Notes: generated by a model from the letters alone, not told the origin. A DNA stretch of 64,000 nt from Candidatus Omnitrophota bacterium (GCA_013286575.1 JABDFL010000002.1:11143-75142), one strand, 5' to 3'; numbered from the stretch's first letter, positions 821 through 27,552 are shown. Made by a program: numbers and translations.

Positions 821-2761
821 TTAAAATCCAAACATATGGTCCAGGCAAAAAGACTTTTCGCCCTTCATCAGCCCATGATAGCCGAACAATCGGCAGGTCG
901 TATCGCGGATGATAATATAGGCGTCTTTTCCGGCCTGGTCACGCTCTTTTTTATCAAACATTTCATGATAGCGCCAAAGCAGAGAACCGCTACAGGCGAT
1001 ATGGATGGTTTTCTTTAATATTTCTGTGCCCTTCGAATCTATCAGGAGCAGGTCTGTTTCAGACTGTGCATGCCAGGGGGTGGATGCCGGATAGATCAAA
1101 TGGCAGATCGTATCTGTGTTTTCATCACGGCCCAAACGCAGAAATAAGCGTGTGCTTAAGCCCGGCGGGCGGCCTGCATAGGACTGAGGTTCATTTTTGT
1201 AAACCAAAGCTGTATTAAAAATATGAGACCCGAAACTGGTTTCCGTGTTGTGCCCGCTCCTGGTGTCCTCATAACGCATCAAGCCATGCAGCCAGCCGTC
1301 GGTATCTCCGCCCTGGGCAAAATCGTAAACCAATTCAACGTGGCCAAAACCGCCAGGCAGTTCACTTTCCGAACGTTTAGCCAAAAGACTATTGATATTG
1401 ATGTCCTTGATATTGGCGCGGTCCAATTTTCCCAGAGGAAAAAGCCCCATCTGCTGGCCTTTGCTGTTATAAATCATCAAGGTCAGCGCAAGATCCTGCT
1501 GGCAGGTTGACATCGGTGTGGGCAAAACGAAATTCTGAAAACGGCCGATCGGCAAAATCGGTGCCGGCAATATATATACCTTGCCCATCACCTTACCTAA
1601 ATTACGGATGGCCGGATCATTTTTAAGATCAGTGCGCTCAACGTTGGTATGGGCCATGAGACGGCGGCCTTTAGGGTCAACGACTTCATAACGGGGCCGG
1701 ACAACATAACGGCCGGCATGGAGTTCAAACTGCTGCGGCCATCTGGCTTTGGGGAATAAAGCTGACACATCAAGAGCAAAGGTCGCAAAAGGAGCAATAG
1801 GCTTGTCAAAAAAGACCACCTCATCTGATCCCATCAAACTCAGGCCCATTCCACCGATGGGTATCTGACAGGGATGGCTGTTTTGCACCCACAAAAGGAC
1901 CTGATGGCCTTCCTTGGGGGCAGGCAGGCCCGCGTAAAGATCAGCAGGCCAGGAATTGGCATCATGCGTGCAGGAAAGCACCGTATCATCGTCGCCGTAG
2001 GTGTCCAGTGCGTATTTGACCACGTCATGGCCGGCAATGCCGGTAAAATGAATAAAAAGGCTGCCGCAAAAAGCAGGCAGTTTCAGGCGCAGGCGTATCT
2101 CGGCGCTGTCAAGAGTGACGGTATGGACGGATTTTTCAAGTTTTTCATTCCATTGCGCCAGCATCTTGCCGTCTTTGTCAAACATGCAGCACCATAACCC
2201 GACGGTCTTGGGGCTGTATCCGGCCCAATAATTGGCCGTGACTAAACGCGTATGATGCCCTGCTTCTTCCCTGAAAAAAACAAAATTGGTGGCGAAATTC
2301 AACGGATCAAGATAATTACGGGGATTGGTCAAAAATTCATCAGCCAGGCGCGCTTCGTCAAAAGAAAAAACCTTCATCCCCTTAGGCAGCAGGTGCTGGA
2401 TTTGAGCGAGCAGGCGTACGGAATCAAAGGCTGTGATGAAAAGAACATCAGCGTCGGTATTCTTAAATTCAGTAATAGGAGATGTGTTTTGACCAAGCAG
2501 CGGCTTACCGATATCAGCAACGTTCTGGACAAAAACACCGCTGATCTTTATGGGGGAAATATCATATAAGGCTTCGAATTCTTCGGCCTGCCCCATAGGA
2601 TCATAGACGGCCACTCTTTCAAATGCCGACAGGGATTTAATTAAACTATTTATTTTAGGCGCGGTCAAAGGATGGCCCAGTGCCTTGAAAAGCGCAGAAC
2701 TGCCTCCTGCATTACTGAATGTTTTGATCTTAAGAGGAATTTCTTGGACTGATGTCTGCAT
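821..2761 (-). CDS. Protein of unknown function, 646 aa
   Basis: ORF 821-2878. I place the start at ATG 2759-2761 (MQTSVQEIPLK...) because GAGGG lies 8 nt upstream and the longer form would overlap the upstream gene by about 150 nt. No motif I recognise. Stop TAA 821-823 is 5 nt from the Kir-like start. Confidence 0.6.
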   Translation of the reverse strand: MQTSVQEIPLKIKTFSNAGGSSALFKALGHPLTAPKINSLIKSLSAFERVAVYDPMGQAEEFEALYDISPIKISGVFVQNVADIGKPLLGQNTSPITEFKNTDADVLFITAFDSVRLLAQIQHLLPKGMKVFSFDEARLADEFLTNPRNYLDPLNFATNFVFFREEAGHHTRLVTANYWAGYSPKTVGLWCCMFDKDGKMLAQWNEKLEKSVHTVTLDSAEIRLRLKLPAFCGSLFIHFTGIAGHDVVKYALDTYGDDDTVLSCTHDANSWPADLYAGLPAPKEGHQVLLWVQNSHPCQIPIGGMGLSLMGSDEVVFFDKPIAPFATFALDVSALFPKARWPQQFELHAGRYVVRPRYEVVDPKGRRLMAHTNVERTDLKNDPAIRNLGKVMGKVYILPAPILPIGRFQNFVLPTPMSTCQQDLALTLMIYNSKGQQMGLFPLGKLDRANIKDININSLLAKRSESELPGGFGHVELVYDFAQGGDTDGWLHGLMRYEDTRSGHNTETSFGSHIFNTALVYKNEPQSYAGRPPGLSTRLFLRLGRDENTDTICHLIYPASTPWHAQSETDLLLIDSKGTEILKKTIHIACSGSLLWRYHEMFDKKERDQAGKDAYIIIRDTTCRLFGYHGLMKGEKSFCLDHMFGF

Positions 2762-3716
2762 ATTTATTTCCCTCACCTTTCTCACAAAAACGTTCATAAA
2801 CAAAATCAGCTGCCCTGCGGGTCTCATCCAACGGCGTGTTTTTCCAAATCTCAATGGCGCCTGAAAAAAGACGCGCATGACCGCTTTGTATCAGGTTCTC
2901 ACAAAATTGTTTGTGCCGGCCTCCGGCCTTAGGTAATTCATAAATATAAACCGGCTTTCCCGTTGAACAGGCTTCAGAGACCATGGAAATGGAATCACTG
3001 GTAACAATGATGACATCCGCCAGTGACAGTAAGCCCAAATAGGGATTTTCCCCCTGGCCATCCCAAATAAAAGAAGGAACCCCTTGAAGATCCTGTCTTA
3101 TTATCGCCTCATTGCGCTCTCCTGTCCGCCGTGAGAAAGAAACAGCAAGACTGCCGCCGGAATTTTGGGCCGCAAGTGTCAACTTCCCCGCAAAATCATG
3201 GGCCGCGGTATCAGAAAAATCCTGATGCTTATTTTTACCGCCGACCAAAACGCTGATCAAAGGACGCGGCAAAGATGCCAGTAAAGGACGAAAGTGTCCG
3301 GCAGCACCCACGAGTTTCTCAGCGCTGACATGGTGAATGGCCCCTTGAGTGACAAACACATTGTCGCCCTGCAATTTGTCATGGGCCGGCGCAATAACAA
3401 GGTCAAAGAGCTTAGGATCAACCAAAGGATGCTGGATATGGGCAGTGAATGTCTTATTTCCGCTGGCGCGGCGGATAAATAGCGAAGCATCCACACTCTG
3501 ACGTCCGCAGCTAATCAGCAAATCCGGCCACGGAGGGGTAAAATCATGCTTTCCCTTTGAAAATAATTGCCAAAGACCTTTGGGTTTCCTGACTTCTTTT
3601 AAAACATAAGAAACCCCAAGCGCCTGGGCCAGGCCAATGGCCTGGTTTTGAAGACCAGCCAACCCTTCCGTCACCACCCAACATGAAGAAACCCGCAAAC
3701 TATTTTTAATGGGCAT
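2730..3716 (-). CDS. ELM1/DUF1022-family protein (GT-B-like fold, function unknown in bacteria)
   Basis: CWVVTEGLAGLQNQAIGLAQALG at the N-terminus, LISVLVGGKNKH, and IIVTSDSISMVSEACSTGKPVYIY match my recollection of the mitochondrial-fission ELM1 family signature. Confidence 0.6.
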   Translation of the reverse strand: MPIKNSLRVSSCWVVTEGLAGLQNQAIGLAQALGVSYVLKEVRKPKGLWQLFSKGKHDFTPPWPDLLISCGRQSVDASLFIRRASGNKTFTAHIQHPLVDPKLFDLVIAPAHDKLQGDNVFVTQGAIHHVSAEKLVGAAGHFRPLLASLPRPLISVLVGGKNKHQDFSDTAAHDFAGKLTLAAQNSGGSLAVSFSRRTGERNEAIIRQDLQGVPSFIWDGQGENPYLGLLSLADVIIVTSDSISMVSEACSTGKPVYIYELPKAGGRHKQFCENLIQSGHARLFSGAIEIWKNTPLDETRRAADFVYERFCEKGEGNKYADISPRNSS

Positions 3717-3728
3717 AAGGACCGCTCT

Positions 3729-4394
3729 TTAATAAGAGGGCGAAAACATTTTAAAAATAGCGGACCAGCGATGCCGGTTTTGTTCTTTATCCACGACTTT
3801 TTGATCAGTCACCCAATTCATCTGGATGACTTTACGCGGCCCCTCAAAAGGCAGATGCCCGTGGTAGGAGTGGTCCGAACGCTTGAAAACAAGCAAGGTC
3901 CCGACATCAGGAGAAATCTCAGTTTTGATATCATCAATATTAGCGCTGTTAAGCACCCGCAGCCGGCCTCCAGCCTGATTTTCCCAGGAAGGGTTCATGT
4001 AAAGCAGTACAGTGATGATCTTGGTTTCAGAATCCGTATGGACCTGGCCGTCTTTGAGCCTGCATTTGCCGCGGACGGTGAACATGGTTGGCTTACCCTC
4101 CAGATCGAGTGAGAATTTCTTTTCGATGGCATGCTTAAAAGCATCCGAGTTCATCTCATTGATTAATTGCTTAAACTCATTACTGCAGGACACGGTGGAC
4201 AAAGGGAAACTGCCGGCGGCCTTGACCTGCGGATAAGCTTCAATCAGTTTGTCTTTCCAATCTTCCCTAATAAAATCCGAAACCACAATATACTCATAGG
4301 GCGATGTTTCCAGTTTTGTACCATCAACCTTAGACACATCAATCATAGACAAATTCGGACTCTTTTCTGTTCCGATTTTAAATGGCTGGTTCAT
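3729..4394 (-). CDS. 2-oxoglutarate/Fe(II)-dependent oxygenase family protein
   Basis: HxD...H facial triad candidates (QVHTDSE ... HSYHGH) and LLYMNPSW..GGRLRV, as in 2OG-FeII_Oxy_3/prolyl-hydroxylase-like proteins. SD AGGGAGA precedes ATG 4394. Confidence 0.65.
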   Translation of the reverse strand: MNQPFKIGTEKSPNLSMIDVSKVDGTKLETSPYEYIVVSDFIREDWKDKLIEAYPQVKAAGSFPLSTVSCSNEFKQLINEMNSDAFKHAIEKKFSLDLEGKPTMFTVRGKCRLKDGQVHTDSETKIITVLLYMNPSWENQAGGRLRVLNSANIDDIKTEISPDVGTLLVFKRSDHSYHGHLPFEGPRKVIQMNWVTDQKVVDKEQNRHRWSAIFKMFSPSY

Positions 4395-4528: not shown

Positions 4529-5311
4529 CTAACCGCGCAGCAGCTCATTGACCACTTTAAGCAGGTCTTGCGAAGTGGTAAACGGGACAAGCCGGTCTAT
4601 CCCCTGCTTTTCACCAATTTTTTGGGTGATAATGGTCTTTTCCGCAATTGTATCAGAATATAAAATAAATTTCACACCCCTGGTTTTAGCCATCAATTTT
4701 AATTTCACGACAACCAAATCGCCGGATATATCTGTTAAACCCAAATTCACCAATGCCACATCAGGTAAAATTCCGGCAATGAGCTCAATACCTTCTGTCC
4801 CGCTCCTAGCCGGGCTGACCGTATACCCCGCACCGGTAAAAACAGGCCCGATCTTGTTCAACATTTCAGGACTGTTGTCAACGAGACAAACTTTTCGGGA
4901 TTCTCTGGCACCTGAAGGGGACACCCTGATACCGGCATTGACTTCTTTCCGGATAATGGTATCAGCCTCACGCAGCAGATCATCAATCTCAAATGGCTTG
5001 GCCATAAATCCATCAATATTCAGTTCCTTAAAAAGTTGCTCCATATTGGCCCGGGCCGTCAAAACCAAAACAGGATACCTTGGCCTGTCCGTACCATCGC
5101 AGATTTTCTGGTAAAATTCGACCCCGCCCATTTTGGGCATGTTCATATCAAGAATAATAAGGTCAGGGTTCATCGTTTCTAATTTGGCCAAGCCTTCGAG
5201 TCCGTTATTGGCCGTTTCAATGTTATAGCCCTTGGATTTTAAAGCGATCTTGACTAATTGCTGCAAATCAATCTCATCATCGATCAATAATATGGTCTTT
5301 GGGTTACTCAT
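4529..5311 (-). CDS. Response regulator: canonical receiver plus C-terminal pseudo-receiver, no output domain
   Basis: REC1: TILLIDDEIDL, DLIILDMNMPKMGG, VLVLTARAN, GFMAKPF. The second receiver-like domain (KVCLVDNSPE, DVALVNLGLTDISG, KFILYSDT, IDRLVPFT) has Asn at the phospho-acceptor position and Val at the conserved Lys position. ATGA overlap with the kinase stop. Confidence 0.85.
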   Translation of the reverse strand: MSNPKTILLIDDEIDLQQLVKIALKSKGYNIETANNGLEGLAKLETMNPDLIILDMNMPKMGGVEFYQKICDGTDRPRYPVLVLTARANMEQLFKELNIDGFMAKPFEIDDLLREADTIIRKEVNAGIRVSPSGARESRKVCLVDNSPEMLNKIGPVFTGAGYTVSPARSGTEGIELIAGILPDVALVNLGLTDISGDLVVVKLKLMAKTRGVKFILYSDTIAEKTIITQKIGEKQGIDRLVPFTTSQDLLKVVNELLRG

Positions 5312-8300
5312 GACGTTACCCTCCGCTCCTGAATAGGAAGTAAAAAGTTAAATGCCGTTCCTTCACCCGGTTTCGATTCAGCCCAGATCTTGCCGCCATG
5401 GCGCAAGATGATTTCTTTACAGATCGCCAATCCCAAGCCTGTACCGCCTTCTTCATTCTCATGGGCAGATTCAATTTGCTGGAATTTCTGAAAAAGTTTT
5501 AAAAGGTCCATCTCATTGATGCCCTTACCGGTATCCCGGATGCTCACAAAAATACAATTCTCCTGCGGGTAGTCCTTGGTCCTGATCATGATCCCGCCTT
5601 GCTTGGTAAATTTGATCGCATTGCCTAATAAATTATTCAAGACCTGAATGATCCTATCGCTGTCAAAAGGAATTTTATGCATTTGAGCGCCTAATTCTGT
5701 TTTGATATATAACCCACGGCTTTGGACGACGTCTCTTTGAGACTCAACGACCTCCTCTATCACCTGATGGAGATCATTCATCATAAAGGTCATCTTTACC
5801 TTGCCCGATTCTATCTTGGTTAGATCTAAAATGTCATCGATCAACCGCTTTAAACGGTCCACATTGCTCTTGGCCCGGCCTAACACTTCATCCTGCTCCG
5901 GATTGATCTCACCGACCATTCTTTTGACGACCAAATCAATCGCTGTTTTAATGGATGCCAGAGGTGTTCGCAACTCATGAGAAACCGTTGAGGTGAAGTC
6001 TTTTTGCATTTCGTACATCATCGTTAATTTTTTATTGGCTGATTCAATTTCCTCTGCTTTTTTACGTTCGGTGATGTCTGTAAAAAGGACCACACAACCC
6101 TCTGGTTTGCCATTATCACCAAAAATAGGCGTGCACGTATAATCGACCGGAAAACTGGTGCCATCCTTGCGCCAAAAAACATCATCCTTCACGCGACGTA
6201 CAGCACCGTCTTTCAAAGTAGCATAAATAGGACATTGGGTTTGCTCGTGGACACTTCCGTCAGCGTGCGTATGATGCATGGTCAGGTGTGCCGGTTTGCC
6301 GATGAGTTCAGCAACTTCGTAACCAAGCATTTTGGCAGAGGCCGGATTTTCATATTTAATTATTCCATTGGCATCCAACCAATGAACACCTTCAATCACC
6401 GACCCCAAGACGATAGTATGTTCATTACGCATCCTCTCTATTTGTTCTTGAGCAAATCTTTTCTCAGCAATGCGCAAGAGTTCATTGGTCTTTGTCAACT
6501 CGGTCTGTGATTTTAAAAGACCTTCCCGTGCACCTTCCAGCCCGACAGCGGCAAAACCGATTTCTTCCTGTAATTTATTAAAGTTAATGGCCATTTCACT
6601 TATTTCATCATGTGAATGGACTATGACCGGTACGAGCTTAAAATCTGCCTTGGCAGCGACTAAATCACCTGCTGCCAGGGCCCGCATCGCCCGGGTAAAA
6701 TCAGCAAGAGTCCCTTGGACCAATTTTTCAGCAGCATTGGAAATTTCTACAGCTGTATGGGCGATCATCCCCGGCAAAATTAAACCAACAGCAATTGTCA
6801 ATAGGGCAACGATGACAAAGATGTCTTCAAGCATGGTGATAAGGCTGATGTCCTGTGTGGGCACGTGGCTTACTGCAATGAAATACCCAATAGCGTCCAA
6901 CGCCAGAACAAGGATCATTGACCCGGTGAGTTTAAGATGAAGGGTGTGCCCCAAAATAGGTAAACCCATTTTTTTATTGTCAGACATCTTGCGCCAGGCA
7001 TAAAGTATTGAACCTGCATAGGCAAAGGCAATCCCAATGATCACGGTTTTAAGGCCGAACTGTTCAAAACCAAAAACAGTCGTTGTAAGCCAACCGATCG
7101 CGGCCAAAAGACCGAGAACGATGGTGCCGTGCGGCGCACGGTAAGGCCGCTCCATTTCCGGATGGTTACGGCGCATCAGCCAAACAGCAACATTGGGCAT
7201 GGCAATACCGATCAAATAGGTCAGATTAGCCGCTGCAACCAGCCAAATGGGATCCCCGATAAAAAGAAAAGCTATGGCCATGGCTGCTGTCAAAAGTGTT
7301 GTCACCCAAGGAGCATCGGAAGGCAGGCGCTTAGACATAAATTCCGGTAACAATCCATCATCGGCAAGTTGTGACAACACGCGGGGCGGCCCGGCCAAGG
7401 GTGCTAAAATACCATGAAACATATTAAAAATGATAAACCACGCGGCCACACCTTTTGCCGCTGCGCCAAACAAAGGTGCAAAGGTAGGCCCGAGTTCACT
7501 GGAAAGATCTCCGGATAATGGTCCCTGTCCTAATACGCCCAGCCAAACCACCGGCAGGACAATAAAATAAAGGCCGGCCATGGCAGCACTGGCAAAAATG
7601 GCCTGAGGGACAGACTTGTTGGGATTGATCGCCTCACCGACGTGACTAGTGGCTTGTTCAAAGGCAGGGGCCGCAAAGCCCACCAGGTAAATCCCTGCCA
7701 TGATACTGGTCCATTGGCCAAACCAGCCGGGAAAAGGGACTGTCAGATGATAGCTGAAAGCCTGGTGCCAATCCACCTTGCCGCTATAAATAGGAATGAT
7801 CGCTGAAAGAAAAGCCAGCCCTCCCGACAAGACCGCAATCGGCATGGCCAATCGCATGGCCCACTTGATCCCACAAAGGTTAATGAAGGTAAAAAAAAGT
7901 ATCAAACATATTCCAATGAATGGTATGGGCATCCAGGGCAGATACCATTGATGCAGGGCTGATGCAGCAAGGAGAGCCGTGATACCGCAGGTTGGTACCC
8001 AACCCCACCAATAACAAACACCTGTAAGATTGGCTAAAATTGGACTATACGGCTTAAAAGCTTCTGCACACGTTGCTGAAATGCCTCCGACGCGATTAGG
8101 ATACATCATCACTAATTCCGTCCAACCGGGTGTCGCCGCCCAACTTAACAGTAACCCGACTATTAAAAGCAATACCGCCGCGGATCCTTGTCCGGGAATC
8201 GAACCTTGACCGGCAATCAAAGCACCGATTAGAAACAAACTTTGATTGCAGCCTCCCATGGCGACGGAAAAAATCCCGAACCAATTAACAGTCCGCGGAT

Positions 8301-8346
8301 GGATGTGAGTATTAGTCGCATTATACCCAGAATTTGTCGAAATCAT
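5308..8346 (-). CDS. Sensor histidine kinase fused to an N-terminal APC/amino-acid-permease-like 12-TM domain (permease-HAMP-PAS-HisKA-HATPase)
   Basis: Permease-like core (NWFGIFSVAMGGCNQSLFLIGALIAGQG, GWTELVMMYPNRVGGISATCAEAF) over about 470 aa plus extra TMs. HAMP (ALAAGDLVAAKADF...HDEISEMAINFNKLQEEI). PAS (TIVLGSVIEGVHWLDANGIIKYENPASAKMLGY). H-box [18 protein letters not shown] boxes LNNLLGNAIKFTKQGG, SIRDTGKGI, GGTGLGLAICKEIILRHGG. Confidence 0.85.
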   Translation of the reverse strand: MISTNSGYNATNTHIHPRTVNWFGIFSVAMGGCNQSLFLIGALIAGQGSIPGQGSAAVLLLIVGLLLSWAATPGWTELVMMYPNRVGGISATCAEAFKPYSPILANLTGVCYWWGWVPTCGITALLAASALHQWYLPWMPIPFIGICLILFFTFINLCGIKWAMRLAMPIAVLSGGLAFLSAIIPIYSGKVDWHQAFSYHLTVPFPGWFGQWTSIMAGIYLVGFAAPAFEQATSHVGEAINPNKSVPQAIFASAAMAGLYFIVLPVVWLGVLGQGPLSGDLSSELGPTFAPLFGAAAKGVAAWFIIFNMFHGILAPLAGPPRVLSQLADDGLLPEFMSKRLPSDAPWVTTLLTAAMAIAFLFIGDPIWLVAAANLTYLIGIAMPNVAVWLMRRNHPEMERPYRAPHGTIVLGLLAAIGWLTTTVFGFEQFGLKTVIIGIAFAYAGSILYAWRKMSDNKKMGLPILGHTLHLKLTGSMILVLALDAIGYFIAVSHVPTQDISLITMLEDIFVIVALLTIAVGLILPGMIAHTAVEISNAAEKLVQGTLADFTRAMRALAAGDLVAAKADFKLVPVIVHSHDEISEMAINFNKLQEEIGFAAVGLEGAREGLLKSQTELTKTNELLRIAEKRFAQEQIERMRNEHTIVLGSVIEGVHWLDANGIIKYENPASAKMLGYEVAELIGKPAHLTMHHTHADGSVHEQTQCPIYATLKDGAVRRVKDDVFWRKDGTSFPVDYTCTPIFGDNGKPEGCVVLFTDITERKKAEEIESANKKLTMMYEMQKDFTSTVSHELRTPLASIKTAIDLVVKRMVGEINPEQDEVLGRAKSNVDRLKRLIDDILDLTKIESGKVKMTFMMNDLHQVIEEVVESQRDVVQSRGLYIKTELGAQMHKIPFDSDRIIQVLNNLLGNAIKFTKQGGIMIRTKDYPQENCIFVSIRDTGKGINEMDLLKLFQKFQQIESAHENEEGGTGLGLAICKEIILRHGGKIWAESKPGEGTAFNFLLPIQERRVTS

Positions 8347-8966
8347 GGATCCTCTCCTTCATGGTTGCCTCTATCCCCTGCCCTGCGGTTATGTCCAAAC
8401 AAATCCCGCACTTTATTGACCAGGTCTTCAAGCTCAAATGGTTTGGCCAAATAACCGTCGGCTCCTAATTTAGTGATCTGTTCTATGGCGTCTTCATCGA
8501 TAGCGCTTGAAATAAAAAGTATTTTAACATTTTTGTTATCGGGATTGGTCCGGATACGGGAACATACCTTATATCCGTCTAAGCCGGGCATCCTGATGTC
8601 TAAAATGACTAAATTCGGTTTGAAACTTGCGAATTTCTCTCCCGCTTCAAATCCATCATAGGCCATTTCCAGATCATCAATTCCCTCTTTTATAAGCAAC
8701 CGTCGGATGGAATCAACCATGCCTTTATCGTCGTCAACGATCAAAATACGCTTTTTACCGTCAGCCTGCACGGTTAAGAATCCTTGAGGGATGGGCATAT
8801 TATATTTTTTAAGAAAATTTAAGAATTCCTCGTTGGTAACTCTACTGTGATTGCCCGGGGTCCGAAACGCTTTTAATTTACCTTCATTGATCCACTGGAT
8901 CACTGTCCGCGGGGTCACCTGGCAATGCTGGGCGATTTCATATGTTGTTAGGGTGTTCTTATACAT
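8343..8966 (-). CDS. Response regulator with N-terminal excisionase/MerR-like HTH and C-terminal receiver
   Basis: HTH: TTYEIAQHCQVTPRTVIQWINEGKLKAFRTPGNHSRV. REC: [43 protein letters not shown] overlap with the kinase start. Confidence 0.8.
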   Translation of the reverse strand: MYKNTLTTYEIAQHCQVTPRTVIQWINEGKLKAFRTPGNHSRVTNEEFLNFLKKYNMPIPQGFLTVQADGKKRILIVDDDKGMVDSIRRLLIKEGIDDLEMAYDGFEAGEKFASFKPNLVILDIRMPGLDGYKVCSRIRTNPDNKNVKILFISSAIDEDAIEQITKLGADGYLAKPFELEDLVNKVRDLFGHNRRAGDRGNHEGEDP

Positions 8967-9087
8967 ATCTTTTTCTCCATACTCTGGGTCAATCCCGCCA
9001 ACTTCCTGTATATCCTTATATTCCTGTTTCTCCTGTTTGAAGGATATCTGGTAATGGGGGGTTTGTCAAGGTAGACAGGTGAGGATA

Positions 9088-9884: not shown

Positions 9885-10838
9885 TTAACCGGCACCGATA
9901 AGCCACCCTGCCAGAAAGACAAGAAGGCCGCCTACAATGACTTGAAATGAAGCGGACAAGAAAGGCGTGTCCATATACTTCCAGCGGATTAAGGAAATGA
10001 TCGATAATTCAACAACAACCACCACCATGGCAATGCTCATGGCCAAACGGAAATCATGGATCAAAAAAGGCAGGGTATGGCCAAGGCCGCCTAAGGCGGT
10101 CATGAGCCCGCAAACCAACCCGCGCAGCCAGGGAGTGCCGCGGCCGCTGAGTTTTCCATCGTCAGATAAAGCTTCGGCAAAACCCATGCTGATGCCGGCA
10201 CCGACGGATGCTGCAAGGCCCACTTTTAAAGCATCCGCGGTACTGCTTGTAGCAAAGGCGGCTGCAAATAAAGGCGCCAAGGTTGAGACAGAACCATCCA
10301 TGAGCCCTGCAAGGCCCGGCTGGACAATATGCAATACAAATTGCCTCCGCGCCACATTCTGTTCAATACCCACTTCACCGGCAGCCGCTTGGGCGTCATT
10401 GATTTGCTCGGCCACTGCCTCATGCCTGCCTTCCTCATGGGCGAGGTCCCCTAAAAGCTGGCGCACCGCGGCATCCTTGGACTTCTCGGCCGCAGCTTCA
10501 TAAAATCTGCGCGCATCCACTTCCATTAAAGCCGCTTGCTCACGCGCCTTTTCAGGACGCAAGGTGCGCACCAGCCACGAAGTACGCGGCACCATAAAAC
10601 CCTTCACATCCTGCCTGCGGACAAGCGGGATATGCTCGCCGAATTTCTTTTGATACAATTCAATCAAACGATGGCGATGACCGGACTCTTCATCCGCCAT
10701 GCGGTCAAAAAGTTCTGCTGTCGCCGGAAAATTTTTACGCAGCTCCTGGGCAAAATCACGGTAGATACGCCCGTCTTCTTCCTCGGCGGTGATGGCTAAA
10801 GCCAATAATTGGGATTCATTGAGATCGCAAAAACGCAT
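9885..10838 (-). CDS. mbfA: Membrane-bound ferritin-type iron exporter (erythrin domain fused to VIT1/CCC1 domain)
   Basis: N-terminal di-iron ExxH motifs ([40 protein letters not shown]). C-terminal VIT1 membrane domain ([33 protein letters not shown]). Confidence 0.7.
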
Positions 10839-18386: not shown

Positions 18387-18794
18387 TTACTGACTTTGTT
18401 CCACTATCGGTAAAGCCAATTCTTTGACCTTTTGAAGAAGATTCTCTACCATAAAAGGCTTATTAATGACAATATCCGCCATATTTAAGACTTTTTCTTC
18501 CTCATCCTGAGAGACGCCATCTTCTTTAAGTAAGGCATCCCCTAAAGGCCGTCCTGAAAGCACCAGGACTTTTAGAGGCTTGACTGTTTTCCTGATATCT
18601 TTAAGGATCCCGTATCCGTTCAGGCCCGGCAATTTCAAATCTAAAATAATAATTTGATATTGCCTCTCTTGCAGATACCGCAGTCCCTGCAGGCCGTCCA
18701 AGGCTATGTCTACTTTAAAGCCTTCTGCTTCAAGGACTTCTCCCAGTTCCGCGCACAACTCTTCGTCGTCGTCAATGATGAGTAGTTTCAGCAT
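18387..18794 (-). CDS. Single-domain response regulator (REC only)
   Basis: KLLIIDDDEEL, QIIILDLKLPGLNG, VLVLSGRP, VINKPF. Start at ATG 18792-18794, preceded by ACAGGAGAAATT. Confidence 0.85.
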   Translation of the reverse strand: MLKLLIIDDDEELCAELGEVLEAEGFKVDIALDGLQGLRYLQERQYQIIILDLKLPGLNGYGILKDIRKTVKPLKVLVLSGRPLGDALLKEDGVSQDEEEKVLNMADIVINKPFMVENLLQKVKELALPIVEQSQ

Positions 18795-21594
18795 AATTTC
18801 TCCTGTGCACCGGCAAAAAAACACAGACCGTGGTCCCTTCTCCCAACCTGCTGCTAATTTCAATTTTACCTTGATGCAAATTGACCAATTCATTGCAAAT
18901 AGTAAGCCCTAAACCAGTCCCCTTGGATTTACGGGTAAAAAACGGCTCAAAAACTTTATCCAAATCTTCCTGGGCAATACCTACACCTTTATCCCGCACG
19001 CTGACACGGACCTGCTCCCCTTCAAGCCGGGCACTTACTTCAACCTTGCCGCCGGGTGCCGCAAAAGCCTGGCAGGCATTATTGATGATATTCAAAAAAA
19101 TCTCCCGGATTTGATTGGGATCAGCCTCAATGAAATCCATGCCGTCATCATATTTTTTTTCAATAATAATGCCTTTCTCGGCAAAACGCCCCTGGGCTGA
19201 TGCCACGCACTCATCAAGGACATTCAGGATACGCACATTTTCATAATTAGGGATTTTAATGCGCGCGTAACTAAGCAAATTGTCGATGATCTGATTGCCT
19301 TCCCAAACTTTCTTTTCAATGTTCACCAAATGTTTATTGGCGTTCAACTCGGCCTTTTCTTTCTTCAAATTATAAGCGGCCAGATGAATGACCCCCAATG
19401 GATTGCGCAACTCGTGGGCCACGGTCGCGGCCAGGGTCCCTATATCTGCCAGACGGCTGAACTGCTTGAGTTCTTTCTGTGTTTTTATCAATTCTTTGGA
19501 GCGTTCATCCACCAGCTGTTCCAGGCTTTCCTTGTCCCGCCGTAAGATTTCTTCGGCCATTTTACGCTCCGTGATATCGATACAAGAACCGATAAAACCT
19601 CCAAAATAACCATTGTAACTGAAACGCGGCACCCCTGTATCCAATACCCAACGGTAAACACCGTCCGCCCTTTTAAGCCTGTAATCCAAAGTGAATTCTT
19701 CGCGGGACTTAAACGCTTTTAAATAGACCTTCATGCAGCGCGAGAGATCATCCGGATGGATCCGCTTTCTCCAACCATCCCCAAAATCATCACCGACGGA
19801 CTGGCCGGTAAAAACCAGCCAGGCCTTATTGCAGAAACTGTAAAGGCCGTCCTCTCCTGACATCCAGATCATGACAGGGGCCGTATCAGCCATGGTCCTG
19901 AAGCGACGCTCGCTTTCTTCGATGGCCAGCTGCGCTTTTTTACGTTCCGTAATATTGCGCGCAATGGATGAAGCACCGATAAGCATGCCTGCATCATTGT
20001 GTAAGGGGGAAACAGTCAGCAACACATCAATAAGGCTGCCATCTTTACGCTGCCGTATGGTTTCCAGAAGCTCTATCTTCCTTCCTTCTTCAAGGTCCTG
20101 AAATATTTCCGCCAATTCCTCTTTTTTATCTTCAGGGACTAAAACTTCAATAGATCGCCCGATCATTTCTTCGGAGGTGTACCCATAAAGCTTCTCTGCC
20201 CCTCTATTCCAGCTGGTGATCGTACCATCCAGCGATTTAGAAATAATAGCTTCATCCGAGCTTTCTACGATGGAAGCAAAATGTACCCGCGCCTCCTCAT
20301 ATTTCTTTCTTTCCGTAATATCACGGTAATTGATCACCACCGCTTCGACAGCCGGTTGGTGCAAAAGATTGCATCCCGAACCCTCCAGCCAGCACCAGCT
20401 GCCGTTTTTACGCTGCATACGGCATACGGTATGCACGATCGCCCCCGGTGTTTTTAAAAGCCCTTCAAATATTTCAAGGATACCGGGAACGTCTTCCGGG
20501 TGCATCCACTCAAACATGGAATGGCCTATAAGCTCTGAATTATCATAACCCAGCACATTTTTCGTCGGAGGGCTGGTATAAACCACCTTGCCTTCCCTGT
20601 CAACCATCGCAATGACTTCGAAGGAATTTTCCACCAGGCTCCTAAAACGGGCCTCATTATATTTTATGTCTTCCTCTGCTTTCTGACGCTCATACAAAGC
20701 CGCAGCCAGGGTCAGGACAGTCACCGCGATAACACCCATGAAACATTGCACTATCACCAAATCTTCCTGCACGCGTTGACCGAGAAATGGCCCCAGATGG
20801 TTGATGGAACCGCAAACCGCGACGATCGAAGTTGTTAAAATAGATAAAATCGCCCCTGGAAAACCAAAACGATAGGTGGACCATATGGCAAAAGGCAATA
20901 TCAAATAAGTTACATGGGAATGAAATCCATATTCCGGGAATCTCCCCATGAACACTCCGCCATTAACTATAATTAAAACAATGCCAACCAGCACAACTTC
21001 CAGGGCCTGCTGCACTGAACTTATTTGCCATGATTTCCTGTGATAGGTCAAAAACATGGAGGCTATGACCAGTATGCCGATGACATCCCCGAGCCACCAT
21101 GTAAACCAAACCATATCAAAAGAAATACCTGCGGCGGGATGGATGAAATAAACAGCAGATGTCCCGATGGTGGCACTGGATAAACAAGCCACCAGGACGG
21201 CGAAAACAAATTTAAAAATGTCCCTGATTTTAGACAACGGCCCCGTTTCTTCGGTAAAGCTGCGCAGCAAGAAGACCCCAAACAGGGCCTCCACGCTGTT
21301 TCCGGCACCGATCAGCGCTGAAACAGGGAACGCCGGAACAGGTGTCCATCCATTATGGATAAAGACCAGCATATTCGCTATAAAAGCCCCCAGCCATATG
21401 CCCGGCCAAACCCTGTATCCCAAAAACCAGATAACGCTAAACGCTATCCCCGACGGAGGCCAGACAGGCGAGGCATTGGTGCCTTCAAAAGCCAATTGCA
21501 GGGAGCCATAGGCAATAAGGGCATACAGGATGGCGATGGCAACGCAAAGGCGGCCTGTAGATACCTGTTGAAGTTTTTTTAAGGACGTCATCAA
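18772..21594 (-). CDS. Sensor histidine kinase: MASE1 membrane domain, three PAS domains, HisKA-HATPase
   Basis: MASE1 signature SPVWPPSGIAFSVIWFLGYRVWPGIWLGAFIAN. PAS starts at RFRSLVENSFEV, HFASIVESSDEAII and RFRTMADTAPVMIW. H-box [57 protein letters not shown]. Confidence 0.85.
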   Translation of the reverse strand: MMTSLKKLQQVSTGRLCVAIAILYALIAYGSLQLAFEGTNASPVWPPSGIAFSVIWFLGYRVWPGIWLGAFIANMLVFIHNGWTPVPAFPVSALIGAGNSVEALFGVFLLRSFTEETGPLSKIRDIFKFVFAVLVACLSSATIGTSAVYFIHPAAGISFDMVWFTWWLGDVIGILVIASMFLTYHRKSWQISSVQQALEVVLVGIVLIIVNGGVFMGRFPEYGFHSHVTYLILPFAIWSTYRFGFPGAILSILTTSIVAVCGSINHLGPFLGQRVQEDLVIVQCFMGVIAVTVLTLAAALYERQKAEEDIKYNEARFRSLVENSFEVIAMVDREGKVVYTSPPTKNVLGYDNSELIGHSMFEWMHPEDVPGILEIFEGLLKTPGAIVHTVCRMQRKNGSWCWLEGSGCNLLHQPAVEAVVINYRDITERKKYEEARVHFASIVESSDEAIISKSLDGTITSWNRGAEKLYGYTSEEMIGRSIEVLVPEDKKEELAEIFQDLEEGRKIELLETIRQRKDGSLIDVLLTVSPLHNDAGMLIGASSIARNITERKKAQLAIEESERRFRTMADTAPVMIWMSGEDGLYSFCNKAWLVFTGQSVGDDFGDGWRKRIHPDDLSRCMKVYLKAFKSREEFTLDYRLKRADGVYRWVLDTGVPRFSYNGYFGGFIGSCIDITERKMAEEILRRDKESLEQLVDERSKELIKTQKELKQFSRLADIGTLAATVAHELRNPLGVIHLAAYNLKKEKAELNANKHLVNIEKKVWEGNQIIDNLLSYARIKIPNYENVRILNVLDECVASAQGRFAEKGIIIEKKYDDGMDFIEADPNQIREIFLNIINNACQAFAAPGGKVEVSARLEGEQVRVSVRDKGVGIAQEDLDKVFEPFFTRKSKGTGLGLTICNELVNLHQGKIEISSRLGEGTTVCVFLPVHRRNYAETTHH

Positions 21595-21599
21595 AGCTC

Positions 21600-21983
21600 C
21601 TATGCTTTATTTACATTACGGCTGACCACATCCAGCATATTGTCCACGCCGCTGGCTTTATTTAAAAAGCCGCTTGCCCTCAACTGATTGACCTTCATGA
21701 CGGCATTCCCGTCAGCTGTAATCACCACCACCGGTATGGCCGCGATATGCTCATCCAATAGCTGTTCACGGCGGAAGCGGTATCCATCCATCACCGGCAT
21801 CATCAGGTCTAATAAAATAAGGTCCACCTTGGCCTGTGTCTTGCGAAGGAAATCCAGCGCTTCCTGGCCATTATTGGCACAATAAACCTTATAACCTTCC
21901 GACTCAAAAAGCTCCTTTGTCAAATCCTGCAAATCAACAGAGTCTTCTACCACCAATAGTGTATTCTTTTTATTTTGTCCCAC
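21600..21983 (-). CDS. Single-domain response regulator (REC only)
   Basis: TLLVVEDSVDL, DLILLDLMMPVMDG, VVVITADGN. I favour GTG 21981-21983 (AAAGGGG upstream); the upstream ATG 22058 would add 25 residues inside the preceding kinase gene. Confidence 0.7.
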   Translation of the reverse strand: MGQNKKNTLLVVEDSVDLQDLTKELFESEGYKVYCANNGQEALDFLRKTQAKVDLILLDLMMPVMDGYRFRREQLLDEHIAAIPVVVITADGNAVMKVNQLRASGFLNKASGVDNMLDVVSRNVNKA

Positions 21984-24867
21984 TATTGACCCCTTTCTTT
22001 TTGATGTTCTCAGGCTTAACAGGCATTTCCAATATGAATTTAGCCCCTTTGCCCTCATCGCTCTCCAGGCGGATAGTACCTTGATGGGCCTCGACTAAAT
22101 TTTTGACGATAAAAAGACCTAGCCCCATGCCGCTTGAATGGGTGACCGGTGAGGCCCGTCCAAACCGTTCAAATATCCTGTGCTGCAGATTAAGCGCAAT
22201 GCCCGGGCCCCGGTCTTCCACGCTGATAAGGACCGTTTTATGGGGCGTTTGATTGACCGTTACCCTGACTGCCGCACCCGGCGCGTATTTAACGGCATTC
22301 GAAAAAAGATTGACGAGGATTTCCTGGAACTTAGCCTGGTCCCATTCCACATAAATGTCTTCCTTCATCTTGATCAACTGGGCAGGGCACCCGGCAATAA
22401 AAAACTGGACCGCAAAACTCTCAAAAGATTCTTTAACAGCGGCGGAAAGGTTAAACACCGCCGGCTGCAGGACCAGCCCTCCCAGGCGGATCTTTGAGAC
22501 ATCCAGCAGATTATTGATTAAATCCACAAATATGTCCACCTGCTTTAAGGACATATCAAAAGACTTTTTTAAAGCCTCCACCGAAGGCGCCTGGTTGACC
22601 TGCGGTTTGATTTTCCTGTCAATCATCTGCAATTGGAGTTTTAAAGCACTCACCGGCGTCTTTAATTCATGGGAAGCGATGGAAAGAAACTCATCCCTGG
22701 CCTGGATAGAATCCTGCAATACCGCATTTAACCGTTCCAGCTCTTCCGCTTTCATTTTTAACTGGCGCCTGTTTTTTGAAACTTCGACCGTCAGCATTTG
22801 CAAGTCTCTCTCCGTGCTTTCCAGTTCGTGCTGCAGCTGTTCCCTGGAACGTTTGATGGCCACCAGGTTATGGACGCGCGCTAAAACTTCTTCGGAGAAG
22901 AACGGTTTTAAAACATAATCCTGTGCCCCTTTCTTAAGGAGCTGGATCCGTAACTGTTCGTCGGCCTTGGCTGTTAAAAGCATGATCGGTATGCCGTCCA
23001 ATTCGGGCATGGTCCTGATTTGAGTGACCATGTGCTCACCGCTCATCCTGGGCATCATGATATCGCTTAAGATCAAATCCGGTTTCAGGTCAATGGCTTT
23101 TTGCAAACCCTCCTGCCCGTCAAAAGCTGTTTCAATATTAAACTCGGCTGATAAAATATCCGTCAGGAAACGGCTCAAATCAGCATTATCTTCAACAATC
23201 AAAACAAGTCCTTTGGCATTTTCTTTTCTTTGAAAATCCTTTGGTCCCGGCGAAACCTCTTTTAATTCCGCCAGACTTTGGACCACCTGGTCTAAGGACA
23301 CTACAGAATCAACTCCGTCCGCAATGACCACATGTGACGGGGCTTTAAGCGGGAGCTTCATCGTGAATTGGGCCCCGTGACCAGGGGCGCCTGCCACCCC
23401 GATAGACCCTTGATGCAACTCTACAAATTCCTTGGCAATGGCAAGCCCCAATCCTGTCCCGCCAAAACGTTTCGTCATATGGTCTTCACCCTGCTTAAAC
23501 CTCTCAAAAATGGCCTCACGCAACTCCAGGGGGACACCCGGACCGGTATCTTTAACGCTGATCAGCATGTCCGCATCCTGTTTTTCGGCGGAAATACTAA
23601 TGGCCCCTCCCTTTGGTGTGAATTTAAAAGCATTACTGATCAAGTTTAACAAAACCCTTTGGACCATATTCGGGTCTGCCTGCAGTATTAACGCATCTGA
23701 AAATTCCATACTGAAAAGAATGTCCTTGTCACGGGCCAGGCCGTCAAAATTACAGGCGATGGACCTGATCATAGCGCCCAAATTAAATGCCACATAACTG
23801 GGCGTAATTTTCCCGGCTTCAAGACGGGCCACATCCAGCAAATCATTGACATGTTTAAGCAAAAGCCTGCCATTGCGAATGATCACTTCCATCGCCTGCT
23901 TCTGTTGCGGGTCAAGATTGGAAGCTTCCCTGATTTTCTCCGCCGGCCCCAGGATCAGGGTCAACGGCGTTCTTAACTCATGGCTGACATTGGCAAAAAA
24001 CTGGGTCTTTAACTGGTCCAGTTGTTTAAGCCGTTCATTGAGCTGGTTTAACTGGATATTTTTCCGTTCGATTTCAGCCTCGGCCTGCTTTTTTTCCGTG
24101 ATATTCCGTCCCTCACCCAAAAAGTACGCGATCTTACCCTGTTCATCACGGATGGGCATCAAAGAAAAATCAATGGTGATCTTTTGTGTGCCTCCCGCCC
24201 CGGCCCATAGTTCAAGCTCTTCCCTGACAAATTCCCCCCGGGTCGCTTTCAAATAAGCGTTATGGACCTTCTGGGGATTGTCTTCCGATACTTTCCAGGG
24301 GGAGACTTCCCACAGATAAGAACCGACAACATCGGATTTTTGTAAACCCGACCCATCGAGCGCGGGTTTATTGATTTCCAGGAACCGGCCGTCCGCGTCA
24401 AGAAGCCCCACAAATTGATACATGCGCTCAAGGATGATCCTGGCCGTGGGCTCACTCACATCTTCGACCCGATGAATGATATAGAGGAGCTTTCCATCGG
24501 GTCCTAAAACCGGTGAATTGATCGGAGTCCAATACCGTTCTTCAAATCCTCCGCCTTGGGAGTCCGGACGAGCAATGTCATATTTCTGGACAAGCATAGC
24601 ATCAGTAGTTTTGTTTAAAACGACCTTTTCCAAAGATGTCCGCAGATTACGCACTCCTGTGGCATGAGGGTCATCGGGATTATCAGGGAATGCCTCAAAA
24701 ATTCCTTTGCCTAAAATGACTTCACGTTTAGTCATCGTTGCCTGAAGATAGGCATTGCTGACAGCAATGATGGTAAAGACAGGTGTATTGGGAAGCAAAA
24801 CGAGGTACAAGCCGGGGCAGGCTTCGAACAAGGCCTGAAAATCAGGCTTTATTGGAGACATATCCAT
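21970..24867 (-). CDS. Hybrid histidine kinase with two complete kinase cores: PAS-PAS-HisKA-HATPase-REC-HisKA-HATPase
   Basis: Core 1: [65 protein letters not shown]: LVLIVEDNADL, DLILSDIMMPRMSG, IMLLTAKAD, DYVLKPF. Core 2: FLSIASHELKTPVSAL, LVNLFSNAVKYAPG, VEDRGPGIA, SGMGLGLFIVKNLVEAHQG. SD GGAGGTG precedes ATG 24867. Confidence 0.85.
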   Translation of the reverse strand: MDMSPIKPDFQALFEACPGLYLVLLPNTPVFTIIAVSNAYLQATMTKREVILGKGIFEAFPDNPDDPHATGVRNLRTSLEKVVLNKTTDAMLVQKYDIARPDSQGGGFEERYWTPINSPVLGPDGKLLYIIHRVEDVSEPTARIILERMYQFVGLLDADGRFLEINKPALDGSGLQKSDVVGSYLWEVSPWKVSEDNPQKVHNAYLKATRGEFVREELELWAGAGGTQKITIDFSLMPIRDEQGKIAYFLGEGRNITEKKQAEAEIERKNIQLNQLNERLKQLDQLKTQFFANVSHELRTPLTLILGPAEKIREASNLDPQQKQAMEVIIRNGRLLLKHVNDLLDVARLEAGKITPSYVAFNLGAMIRSIACNFDGLARDKDILFSMEFSDALILQADPNMVQRVLLNLISNAFKFTPKGGAISISAEKQDADMLISVKDTGPGVPLELREAIFERFKQGEDHMTKRFGGTGLGLAIAKEFVELHQGSIGVAGAPGHGAQFTMKLPLKAPSHVVIADGVDSVVSLDQVVQSLAELKEVSPGPKDFQRKENAKGLVLIVEDNADLSRFLTDILSAEFNIETAFDGQEGLQKAIDLKPDLILSDIMMPRMSGEHMVTQIRTMPELDGIPIMLLTAKADEQLRIQLLKKGAQDYVLKPFFSEEVLARVHNLVAIKRSREQLQHELESTERDLQMLTVEVSKNRRQLKMKAEELERLNAVLQDSIQARDEFLSIASHELKTPVSALKLQLQMIDRKIKPQVNQAPSVEALKKSFDMSLKQVDIFVDLINNLLDVSKIRLGGLVLQPAVFNLSAAVKESFESFAVQFFIAGCPAQLIKMKEDIYVEWDQAKFQEILVNLFSNAVKYAPGAAVRVTVNQTPHKTVLISVEDRGPGIALNLQHRIFERFGRASPVTHSSGMGLGLFIVKNLVEAHQGTIRLESDEGKGAKFILEMPVKPENIKKKGVNSGTK

Positions 24868-26821: not shown

Positions 26822-27552
26822 TACTGGGCCGCTGAAAATCTTGGGGTGCCCACAAAAGCGGTAATCCCTCTATTTTTGAGCGCCGCGAAAGCATCTTCAT
26901 CGGTGGTGTCATCCCCGATATAAACCGGCAATACGTTTCCTTTACCTTTAAGGATTTCCTGTTTTCTTAAAAGCCACAGGGCAGCTTTTCCTTTATCCCA
27001 TTCCACGGGAGGCTTTATCTCAAGCACCTTCTTTCCTACATGGACTTTAATTTCGTTTTGCCTGCGATAAGGCATGCAAATGTGATCAAAAATCCTTTTT
27101 ACCAGGAATTCTTTATCCTGCTTCACCAAACGGTAATGCACGCTAAATGTCACACCTTTATCTTCCACAAAAACGCCCTGAATATCGGAAAGTTGCGTGA
27201 CCAATTCATACTTGATCTTTGCCATGATTGATGCAATCTGGACAGGAACAAGGCTTTCAAAATGCATCGAAGAACCCTCTATTTCCCATCCGTGATTGCC
27301 GATATAAAGAACGCCTTCGATACCTACCATTTTTTTGATGTCTGCCAGTGCCCGGCCGCTGATAATCACCACCTGAAACAAAGGAATTTTGACTAAATGA
27401 CCGATCAATTCTTTATTTTCCATGGATAAAACCGCCTGTGACGGACTTGGCGCAATCGGCGTCAAGGTGCCGTCATAATCCAAAAGTAAAAGGATATTCT
27501 TATCAGCCCATGCCTGCACAATACGGTCCCAGGATTCGAGTAAATTTCTCAT
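26758..27552 (-). CDS. otsB: Trehalose-6-phosphate phosphatase (HAD family)
   Basis: HAD motif I LLLLDYDGTLTPIAP and motif IV VYIGDDTTDEDAF. ATGA overlap with the otsA stop. Confidence 0.85.
   Translation of the reverse strand: MRNLLESWDRIVQAWADKNILLLLDYDGTLTPIAPSPSQAVLSMENKELIGHLVKIPLFQVVIISGRALADIKKMVGIEGVLYIGNHGWEIEGSSMHFESLVPVQIASIMAKIKYELVTQLSDIQGVFVEDKGVTFSVHYRLVKQDKEFLVKRIFDHICMPYRRQNEIKVHVGKKVLEIKPPVEWDKGKAALWLLRKQEILKGKGNVLPVYIGDDTTDEDAFAALKNRGITAFVGTPRFSAAQYCLEGPQEVTELLKHMILIPS

Follow-up and report, generated by a model that had tools for sequence, protein, structure and literature searches.

What does a complete permease do at the front of a histidine kinase? The question is raised by a gene in a 64,000-nucleotide stretch of DNA from Candidatus Omnitrophota bacterium (GCA_013286575.1 JABDFL010000002.1:11143-75142), called here the window, in which all coordinates are counted unless another locus is named. 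The open reading frame (ORF) at 5308..8346 is read from the minus strand, begins with ATG and continues without interruption for 1012 residues, and the ORF call and Pfam identify the entire product as a sensor histidine kinase. A preliminary description made from the DNA alone had placed the gene at 5308-8346 and left its strand unstated; the ORF was confirmed and the strand is minus. We hold, with about even confidence, that the protein is a membrane receptor kinase in which a permease has been taken over for sensing as the input module.

The domain order is a 12-transmembrane (TM) helix APC permease core, two extra TM helices, HAMP, PAS, HisKA and HATPase_c, all encoded on the minus strand. 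The TmoP-like sensor core (residues 21-455; 6982..8286) was defined by Pfam, NCBIfam, AlphaFold2 and Foldseek and coincides with the approximate span in which hydropathy places 12 core TM helices. Pfam AA_permease_2 matches residues 21-427 with E = 7.9e-34 and 117.7 bits (cut-off 27), and AA_permease matches with E = 1.7e-11 and 44 bits (cut-off 24.6). The preliminary description had proposed an APC-type sensor, and the N-terminal domain does match APC profiles above their curated cut-offs. An AlphaFold2 model of residues 1-639 as a monomer had a predicted local distance difference test (pLDDT) score of 80.7 and a predicted template modeling score of 0.80. Foldseek comparison of this model with the PDB returned BasC, y+LAT, GkApcT, LAT1 and AdiC with TM-scores of 0.73-0.80, E-values of ~1e-12 and 14-19% identity, and the fold matches also include NKCC and KCC. 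The Pfam scores, the model and the Foldseek matches together identify the sensor core as a predicted APC fold. The TM1 helix of the model is broken at N34-Q35 and TM6 (208-233) is drawn unbroken, with a local pLDDT of 62-69 in these regions. Pfam, hydropathy and AlphaFold2 agree with the permease-TM-HAMP-PAS-HisKA-HATPase layout and the intact kinase motifs of the preliminary description, and both strings it cited occur in the protein, GWTELVMMYPNRVGGISATCAEAF spanning residues 74-97 and SHELRTPL spanning 789-796.

The core is joined to HAMP by a hairpin of two helices, TM13 (469-493) and TM14 (500-537), that together cover residues 469-537 (6736..6942) and were located by hydropathy and by model helices 469-493 and 500-558. 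The hairpin contains invariant D484 and D508, its outside loop is short and a periplasmic domain is absent. With a positively charged loop at 452-470 and only a short loop between TM13 and TM14, HAMP is placed in the cytoplasm and no periplasmic domain remains. The HAMP domain (residues 541-612; 6511..6726) was assigned from a sub-threshold Pfam match, homologues and the model. Pfam HAMP scores 20.1 bits at 547-596, under the cut-off of 25, but the homologous region exceeds the cut-off in relatives (overall range 25-37 bits; 35.5 bits in L087, the locus of Paraburkholderia sp. PREW-6R, and 35-37 bits in P0152 and P0156) and the HAMP-type motif DE(I/V)xxMAxxFNxL is present in the kinase, so the assignment is secure. 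The model draws TM14 and the first HAMP helix as a single helix (500-558), followed by a connector and a long second helix (581-638) that extends as a signaling helix toward the PAS domain. This predicted continuity of TM14 with HAMP is the geometry known from classical TM2-HAMP receptors.

The transmitter is complete. A cytoplasmic PAS domain (residues 650-762; 6061..6399) is matched by Pfam PAS_9 (E = 1.4e-13) and also by PAS_4 and PAS. The HisKA dimerization and phosphoacceptor domain (DHp; residues 781-848; 5803..6006; E = 8.6e-18) contains the H-box SHELRTPL with the phosphoacceptor His790 encoded at 5977-5979, and the HATPase_c catalytic domain (CA; residues 895-1006; 5329..5664; E = 4.1e-29) follows. 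H790, N905, N909, D938, G940, G942 and G972, which represent the H-box and the N, G1 and G2 boxes, are invariant across 40 homologues. By its motifs the protein fits a HisKA-type sensor histidine kinase. Residues 690-715 of the PAS domain (~6202-6279, minus strand) hold a His-rich run followed by a Cys, HLTMHHTHADGSVHEQTQCPIY, that is kept in the closest relative (L035, a locus of a Planctomycetales metagenome-assembled genome). This stretch could be a cofactor or metal site and act as a second cytoplasmic input.

The architecture is that of a large family. A word-indexed protein search retrieved over 120 proteins that share the permease-kinase architecture. HMMER with residues 1-520 against 1.84 billion representative proteins gave only 1286 matches at E<=1e-3, of which 444 remain at 1e-10 and 213 at 1e-30. 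E-values were scaled to the whole 1.84-billion library, so that ordinary APC transporters drop below threshold, and the low match count indicates that the sensor is a distinct, divergent APC clade. The near-full-length matches, among those listed, are all 760-1540 residues long, that is, fused. A genome scan that used one genome for each of 185,579 species gave 463 confirmed loci, and every one of the best 80 has a long fused ORF. A hand count of these 80 gave ~50 Verrucomicrobiota, 20 Pseudomonadota, 3 Planctomycetota, 3 Myxococcota, 2 Acidobacteriota, 1 Gloeobacterales and 1 metagenome-assembled genome labelled Actinomycetota. The Pseudomonadota carriers include Methylotenera, Methylophilus, Undibacterium arcticum, Mesorhizobium, Hyphomicrobium, Rhizomicrobium and Nevskia, and an additional member lies on a Paraburkholderia megaplasmid. 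The closest of the best 80 loci is L035, at 86% identity. The survey of domain architectures that the preliminary description had suggested therefore shows a widespread family of 463 loci in seven phyla, with Verrucomicrobiota predominant, and not a one-off fusion. Three short candidates for stand-alone members (P0123, P0178 and P0126) were rejected, each being a contig-end fragment or frameshifted. The permease-sensor clade appears, from these sequence searches, to be dedicated to signaling, with no genuine stand-alone transporter members. Automatic annotation labels the family proteins 'amino acid permease' or 'PAS domain S-box protein'. One genome, the Verrucomicrobia subdivision 3 metagenome-assembled genome CAIJNQ01, carries two paralogous permease-kinase genes (L046 and L069).

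The sensor is the constant part of these proteins. Mean pairwise identity among the 40 homologues is 0.80 in the permease core, 0.72 in TM13-14 and 0.73 in HAMP, compared to 0.36 in PAS, 0.35 in DHp and 0.39 in CA. By these values the sensor is more constrained than the transmitter, the reverse of the usual kinase pattern. TM1, TM3, TM6, TM8 and TM10 contain invariant columns by the dozen, and the family-invariant motifs are AMGGxNQSLF in TM1, CYWWGWxP in TM3, GFAAPAFE in TM6 and NMxHG in TM8. The permease-2TM-HAMP segment is a plug-and-play cassette that is attached to HisKA kinases with or without PAS, to HWE/HisKA_2 kinases and to hybrids with REC and HPt. Two divergent members (P0185 and P0200; 32-36% identity) have GGDEF-HD or PAS-GGDEF-EAL in place of the kinase, and the cassette would thus directly control enzymes of cyclic di-GMP (c-di-GMP) metabolism as well. 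Many homologues have no PAS domain (short forms such as P0109 and P0070), which shows that PAS is dispensable in the family and that the permease domain is the constant input.

The genes that adjoin other family members encode REC-PAS-HK-REC, REC-HK-REC-REC, REC-GGDEF-EAL, REC-EAL and REC-HD proteins, where HK is a histidine kinase, and a chemotaxis-like cluster is found nearby. ORFs within 4 kb of the gene were clustered at 80 loci, and the only recurrent neighbors are receiver- or kinase-containing proteins (39 loci). The next cluster consists of mixed generic ABC ATPases distant from the gene, and several further clusters were rejected as antisense shadow ORFs of high-GC kinase genes. This gene content fits a general sensory input domain and not the regulator of a single catabolic operon.

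The branch of the APC family to which the sensor belongs was determined with NCBIfam models. The best model is the trimethylamine N-oxide (TMAO) permease TmoP (NF053774) with 124 bits and E = 5e-36, followed by the amino-acid transporter TIGR00909 (71 bits), the L-type amino-acid transporter (53 bits), the ethanolamine permease (45 bits) and the basic amino acid/polyamine antiporter (19 bits). TmoP ranked first in 29 of 29 family members, with a best E-value of 3.8e-40 versus 1.6e-22 for amino-acid transporters. The TmoP equivalog cut-off is 690 bits and the sensor scores 124-125 bits, so it is not TmoP itself. Among plasmids searched with tblastn, the stand-alone permeases closest to the sensor come from Paraburkholderia and Methylobacterium and share 24-26% identity with its residues 2-458. 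The ones examined reach 829 and 862 bits with the TmoP model and are true TmoP equivalogs, and their genes adjoin DmmA, oxidative N-demethylase, aminomethyltransferase and methylamine dehydrogenase genes. The family hidden Markov model (HMM) spans all 12 TM helices of true TmoP proteins, and the signatures CxWxxWxP (TM3), FExAxC (TM6), AGxxRTLxQxSxDGxLP (TM8) and RPxRAP are common to the two. No tdm, dmm, tmm or mau genes adjoin the sensor gene in the window or in the loci examined. These comparisons assign the sensor to the TmoP branch of the APC family without making it TmoP. The solved amino-acid transporters in the PDB align by sequence only from about TM4 to TM12, and TM1-TM3 do not align. 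The profile search of the PDB was done with an N-terminal-only alignment because an alignment that included some full-length proteins was swamped by kinase matches.

The location of the substrate site in APC transporters suggests where a ligand would bind. The roles of the substrate-site residues of AdiC are those known from AdiC structures. TM6 gives a clean mapping between E. coli AdiC and the family HMM, with F224 equivalent to W202, P227 to I205, A228 to G206 and E230 to E208. TM1 has no HMM alignment to AdiC; the invariant G31-G32-x-N34-Q35-S36 (in A-M-G-G-x-N-Q-S-L-F) stands where AdiC has G25-S26-G27. The G-S/T-G motif of TM1 (GSG in LAT1) binds the α-carboxylate of amino-acid substrates in AdiC and LAT1. 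Invariant C111-Y-W-W-G-W116 and C120 of TM3 overlap the AdiC Y93-M104 substrate-contact stretch in a register that is ambiguous by ~3 residues between the HMM alignment and a manual alignment anchored on GG. The TM8 mapping is approximate; AdiC W293 corresponds to L314-L317, and invariant N308, H311 and G312 lie one to two turns further out. The pocket is named as a candidate because TM1 is unaligned and the TM3 register is ambiguous. The general APC motifs ExxxxPxxGG after TM2 and ExxNPxxxxP after TM6 are retained. An aromatic-rich TM3 together with polar residues in TM1 would, we infer, suit a small cationic or zwitterionic nitrogen compound. At low confidence, the ligand may be a small nitrogenous organocation or amine (TMAO, another methylated amine or an ethanolamine-like compound) and not a proteinogenic amino acid.

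The kinase gene is the second of a three-gene minus-strand operon with the order HTH_17-REC, permease-kinase and REC/pseudo-REC, an order that is kept in L035. The first gene (8343..8966) encodes a response regulator (Response_reg, E = 2.8e-28; HTH_17, E = 2e-8) with an excisionase/MerR-like HTH_17 domain at the N-terminus and REC at the C-terminus. Its acceptor Asp is intact within 'VILDIRMPG', and its L035 orthologue is 73% identical and occupies the equivalent position. The third gene (4529..5311) encodes a 260-residue protein with two stretches matched by Pfam Response_reg. The first REC is intact with the acceptor Asp in 'IILDMNMP', and in the second, receiver-like half Asn replaces the acceptor and Val replaces the conserved Lys; the L035 orthologue is 70% identical. 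Both junctions are 4-nucleotide ATGA overlaps, one between the HTH_17-REC stop and the kinase start and the other between the kinase stop and the REC/pseudo-REC start. Pfam, the sequences and these overlaps corroborate the HTH-REC and REC plus pseudo-REC regulators that the preliminary description had placed on either side of the kinase. A candidate σ70-like promoter, TTGACA-17-TATCCT (9041..9069, minus strand), lies ~75 nucleotides upstream of the first gene, in the 189-nucleotide gap after the TauE gene. Promoter-like matches are not enriched across the region (14 versus 9.1 ± 3.4 in shuffled sequences), which makes the promoter evidence weak, and a terminator scan of the region was likewise no better than background.

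The L035 operon encodes HTH_17-REC, the APC-kinase, a REC-HK and a REC-pseudo-REC, and thus has a separate REC-HK gene after the sensor kinase. The window kinase matches the L035 sensor kinase with 84.8% identity over residues 1-764. Over residues 765-1012 (5308-6054, minus strand) it is 74% identical to the DHp-CA of the L035 REC-HK (L035:6602-7750) but only 34% identical to the core of the L035 sensor kinase itself. The window kinase looks like an in-frame deletion fusion that lost one kinase core and one receiver, with the junction near 6054/6055. Such a fusion is at least compatible with a signal that normally passes from the first kinase to the second, and would illustrate the portability of the cassette. 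Two flanking ORFs of L035 (L035:231-803 and L035:10026-10526), when compared with the window, gave no match.

The receptor mechanism that we favor would proceed as follows. The 12-TM APC/LeuT-fold domain of the TmoP branch would bind a small solute from the periplasmic side, in a candidate pocket at the usual central site of TM1, TM3, TM6 and TM8. The bound ligand would shift the conformational equilibrium of the rocking bundle, and the movement would be relayed via TM12 to the family-specific TM13-TM14 hairpin. The hairpins of a dimer could form a four-helix bundle like that found under HAMP in classical receptors. The TM14 helix would drive HAMP, and HAMP, the signaling helix and PAS would set the kinase/phosphatase balance of the dimeric DHp-CA. 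His790 would phosphorylate HTH_17-REC, the probable transcriptional output, and REC/pseudo-REC, which may be an adaptor or a phosphate sink.

Several observations weigh against this mechanism or its ligand. The model is monomeric, its pLDDT is ~62 in TM1 (residues 31-50) and it draws TM6 as one continuous helix. The register of the AdiC alignment is uncertain by ~3 residues across TM1-TM3. The similarity to TmoP amounts to only ~25% identity and 124 of the 690 bits, a distance at which specificity often shifts, and TM1 differs from TmoP too (polar NQS here, hydrophobic in TmoP). The high identity of the sensor is partly a selection effect, as matches were ranked by sensor similarity, and deeper fused branches fall to 30-45% sensor identity. 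The 80 loci have no recurrent metabolic or transport neighbor within 4 kb that would give a clue to the ligand. Finally, transport cannot be read from sequence: Ks-Amt5 does not translocate although it retains every Amt motif (PMC5764959, PMC11152129), whereas CbrA does transport.

A true transceptor is the strongest of the alternatives, a real possibility on the unlikely side. The APC domain would still be a secondary transporter, the kinase would track turnover and not occupancy, and the cell would gauge actual import. All 12 TM helices are conserved, including the glycine- and proline-rich segments of TM1 and TM6 used for alternating access, and the general APC motifs after TM2 and TM6 are in place, as expected of a transporter. 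CbrA, the best-studied fused example, transports L-histidine, but no CbrA activity was significantly affected by L-histidine (Wirtz et al., PMC7096432). Transport and signaling appear uncoupled in CbrA (PMC7096432), and the statement in the preliminary description that substrate binding or flux gates the kinase in CbrA is not established. A clade with no free-living transporter members is unexpected if uptake were the main selected function, and the cassette is tied to global outputs (c-di-GMP enzymes and multi-kinase relays) and not to the catabolic operons of an imported substrate. It is the lack of free-standing members that leads us to prefer a receptor over a flux-sensing transceptor.

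We consider it distinctly unlikely that what the permease domain reads is not an organic solute but something ionic or physical (proton-motive force, pH, K+/Na+/NH4+ or membrane state), or that the domain is mainly a dimerizing scaffold with the chemical input coming via PAS or partner proteins. In favor of this reading, no link to a metabolic pathway is seen, the downstream networks are pleiotropic, and strong conservation of the sensor over seven phyla would be expected for a universal cue. Invariant acidic residues (E77, E230, D484 and D508) lie in or near membrane helices, and members that transport ions or are coupled to them occur within the wider APC fold, with NKCC and KCC among the fold matches. 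However, a PAS domain that is missing from many members cannot be the family input, a mere scaffold would not hold dozens of invariant residues on TM1, TM3, TM6 and TM8, and the nearest relatives of the sensor transport an organic solute.

The preliminary description proposed that the kinase reports amino-acid or polyamine availability, a function that the comparisons make very unlikely. In its favor are the Pfam family name, the matches to LAT, CAT and AdiC folds, and a TM6 that aligns with the α-amino-binding segment of AdiC and LAT (F224 with AdiC W202 and E230 with AdiC E208). The model scores run the other way; the amino-acid and polyamine families fall 50-100 bits below TmoP, with TIGR00909 at 71 bits versus 124 and the antiporter at 19, TmoP leads in all 29 members, and PotE matches 2 of the 29. 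The substrate site itself lacks the TM1 G-S/T-G carboxylate motif of amino-acid transporters and has the invariant GGxNQS instead, and TM1-TM3 cannot be aligned to those transporters. That the fusion stems from faulty assembly or annotation, or that the gene is decaying, is so improbable that it can be set aside, as the identical 1012-residue protein is on record in independent assemblies (NCBI, JGI and Logan), 463 loci share the architecture, the reading frame is open and the kinase catalytic residues are intact and invariant.

The receptor reading places the protein among sensors derived from transporters. The CbrA/CrbS/PrlS SLC5-STAC kinases have the same plan of a complete N-terminal LeuT-fold transporter domain followed by PAS-HisKA-HATPase in a two-component operon, and the transceptor concept applies to both (PMC7096432, PMC13022988, PMC7918813). 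The window kinase differs in belonging to APC (TC 2.A.3) and not to SSS/SLC5, with neither SSF nor STAC found by Pfam, in having 12+2 TM helices instead of 13, and in coupling through a two-TM hairpin and HAMP instead of STAC. A CbrX-like peptide is not evident here, and SLC5 sensors have close stand-alone transporter relatives whereas the APC-kinase clade has none. Ks-Amt5 (Amt-HK) and Sd-Amt1 (Amt-HAMP-GGDEF) likewise use a transporter scaffold as a receptor with kinase and GGDEF outputs (PMC5764959, PMC11152129), and Sd-Amt1 couples via HAMP as the APC cassette does. The trimeric 11-TM Amt channel is unrelated in fold to the LeuT-fold APC domain, Pfam gives no Ammonium_transp match, and the Amt receptors have known ligands. 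The trimer-to-dimer symmetry problem of Amt receptors need not affect an APC dimer. GrtK, the ammonia sensor kinase of Burkholderia glumae, was rejected as a relative because its 6-TM PilS-like domain is unrelated.

TmoP is the TMAO permease of Methylocella silvestris according to Zhu et al. 2014, as cited in PMC4543880. No other curated family, and no other stand-alone permease found, is closer to the sensor. TmoP has 12 alignable TM helices and common TM3, TM6, TM8 and TM10 signatures, but it is a stand-alone protein of 520-590 residues encoded beside dmm, HODM and mau genes and is ~25% identical to the sensor. Yeast Ssy1 of the SPS sensor is a non-transporting receptor derived from an amino-acid permease that uses the same fold in sensing; it is eukaryotic, signals via a protease complex and is not fused to a kinase or HAMP (PMC12958826). 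In the LysP-CadC 'trigger transporter' pair an APC permease also acts as a sensor that reports lysine to a separate regulator, but LysP is an ordinary transporter whose contact with CadC is non-covalent, with no kinase or HAMP fusion (PMC12764776, PMC3096576). The solved APC transporters (BasC, LAT1, y+LAT, GkApcT, AdiC and ApcT) share the predicted fold and a sequence alignable from TM4 to TM12; at 14-19% identity they are distinguished by the G-S/T-G motif, which the sensor does not have, and by the absence of the two extra TM helices and the cytoplasmic signaling chain. By analogy, the protein would work like the transporter-derived receptors while being a member of none of these groups, as Pfam finds no SLC5, STAC or Amt domain. 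A full-text literature search found no paper on an APC-kinase architecture, in line with the view of the preliminary description that APC-fold fusions are uncharacterized. That description missed what appears to be a large, always-fused family, with a sensor better conserved than its kinase and with c-di-GMP outputs. The family size, the apparent signaling-only use, the unusually conserved sensor and the probable TmoP ancestry are new here; the transporter-receptor concept and the database-visible architecture were already known.

The window is unusually dense in two-component genes. These include, on the minus strand, a MASE1-3xPAS kinase (18772-21594), a HAMP kinase with an OmpR-type regulator (30138-32278) and a REC-PAS kinase (33324-34901). 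A 965-residue tandem double kinase (21970-24867, minus strand) has PAS and two full HisKA+HATPase_c units with a REC between them, and a 1807-residue hybrid histidine kinase (34886-40309, minus strand) carries a poly-HAMP array of at least 10 tandem HAMP/HAMP_2 units ahead of GAF, HisKA, HATPase_c and REC. Just downstream of the sensor operon (821-4394, minus strand) are genes for a 2-oxoglutarate-Fe(II) oxygenase that weakly resembles the cyclophane-peptide maturase YhhC, for a protein with strong homology to Mito_fiss_Elm1 (E = 1e-93) and for a 685-residue protein with no Pfam or NCBIfam match. Upstream of the operon, one protein joins a rubrerythrin domain to a membrane domain of the VIT1 (vacuolar iron transporter-like) type (9885-10838, minus strand), with TauE, MIP aquaporin and BacA genes around it. 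The window also encodes a GH15/trehalase-like hydrolase and a GT20 trehalose-phosphate synthase (24938-29069, minus strand) and has, farther along, cellulose-synthase-like GT2, GH8 and TPR genes (42172-46788).

Transporter-derived receptors are few and each is informative, as CbrA, Ks-Amt5, Sd-Amt1 and Ssy1 illustrate. With this family, the known receptor modules of bacteria would come to include the APC fold, the best-understood scaffold among amino-acid transporters. We tentatively suggest that the cassette is an unrecognized, widespread class of bacterial receptor, the first with an APC fold in prokaryotes and the counterpart in bacteria of yeast Ssy1, that it arose from a TMAO-permease-like ancestor to sense a small organocation or amine (such as TMAO or methylated amines), and that it feeds c-di-GMP, multi-kinase relays and transcription in Verrucomicrobiota, Planctomycetota, methylotrophs and soil Proteobacteria. 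The family has practical advantages in its simple coupling path, from TM12 through the two-TM hairpin to HAMP, and in natural cassette fusions to several outputs. Cultured carriers are Undibacterium arcticum KCTC 42986, Mesorhizobium sp. M2E.F.Ca.ET.219.01.1.1, Paraburkholderia sp. PREW-6R and Verrucomicrobia bacterium IMCC26134. A sensor identity of 60-86% across seven phyla implies one important cue in the environment of abundant bacteria of fresh water and soil, especially the poorly understood Verrucomicrobiota. Should TMAO or a different methylated amine be that cue, the availability of methylated amines would be tied through the family to c-di-GMP and the control of lifestyle.

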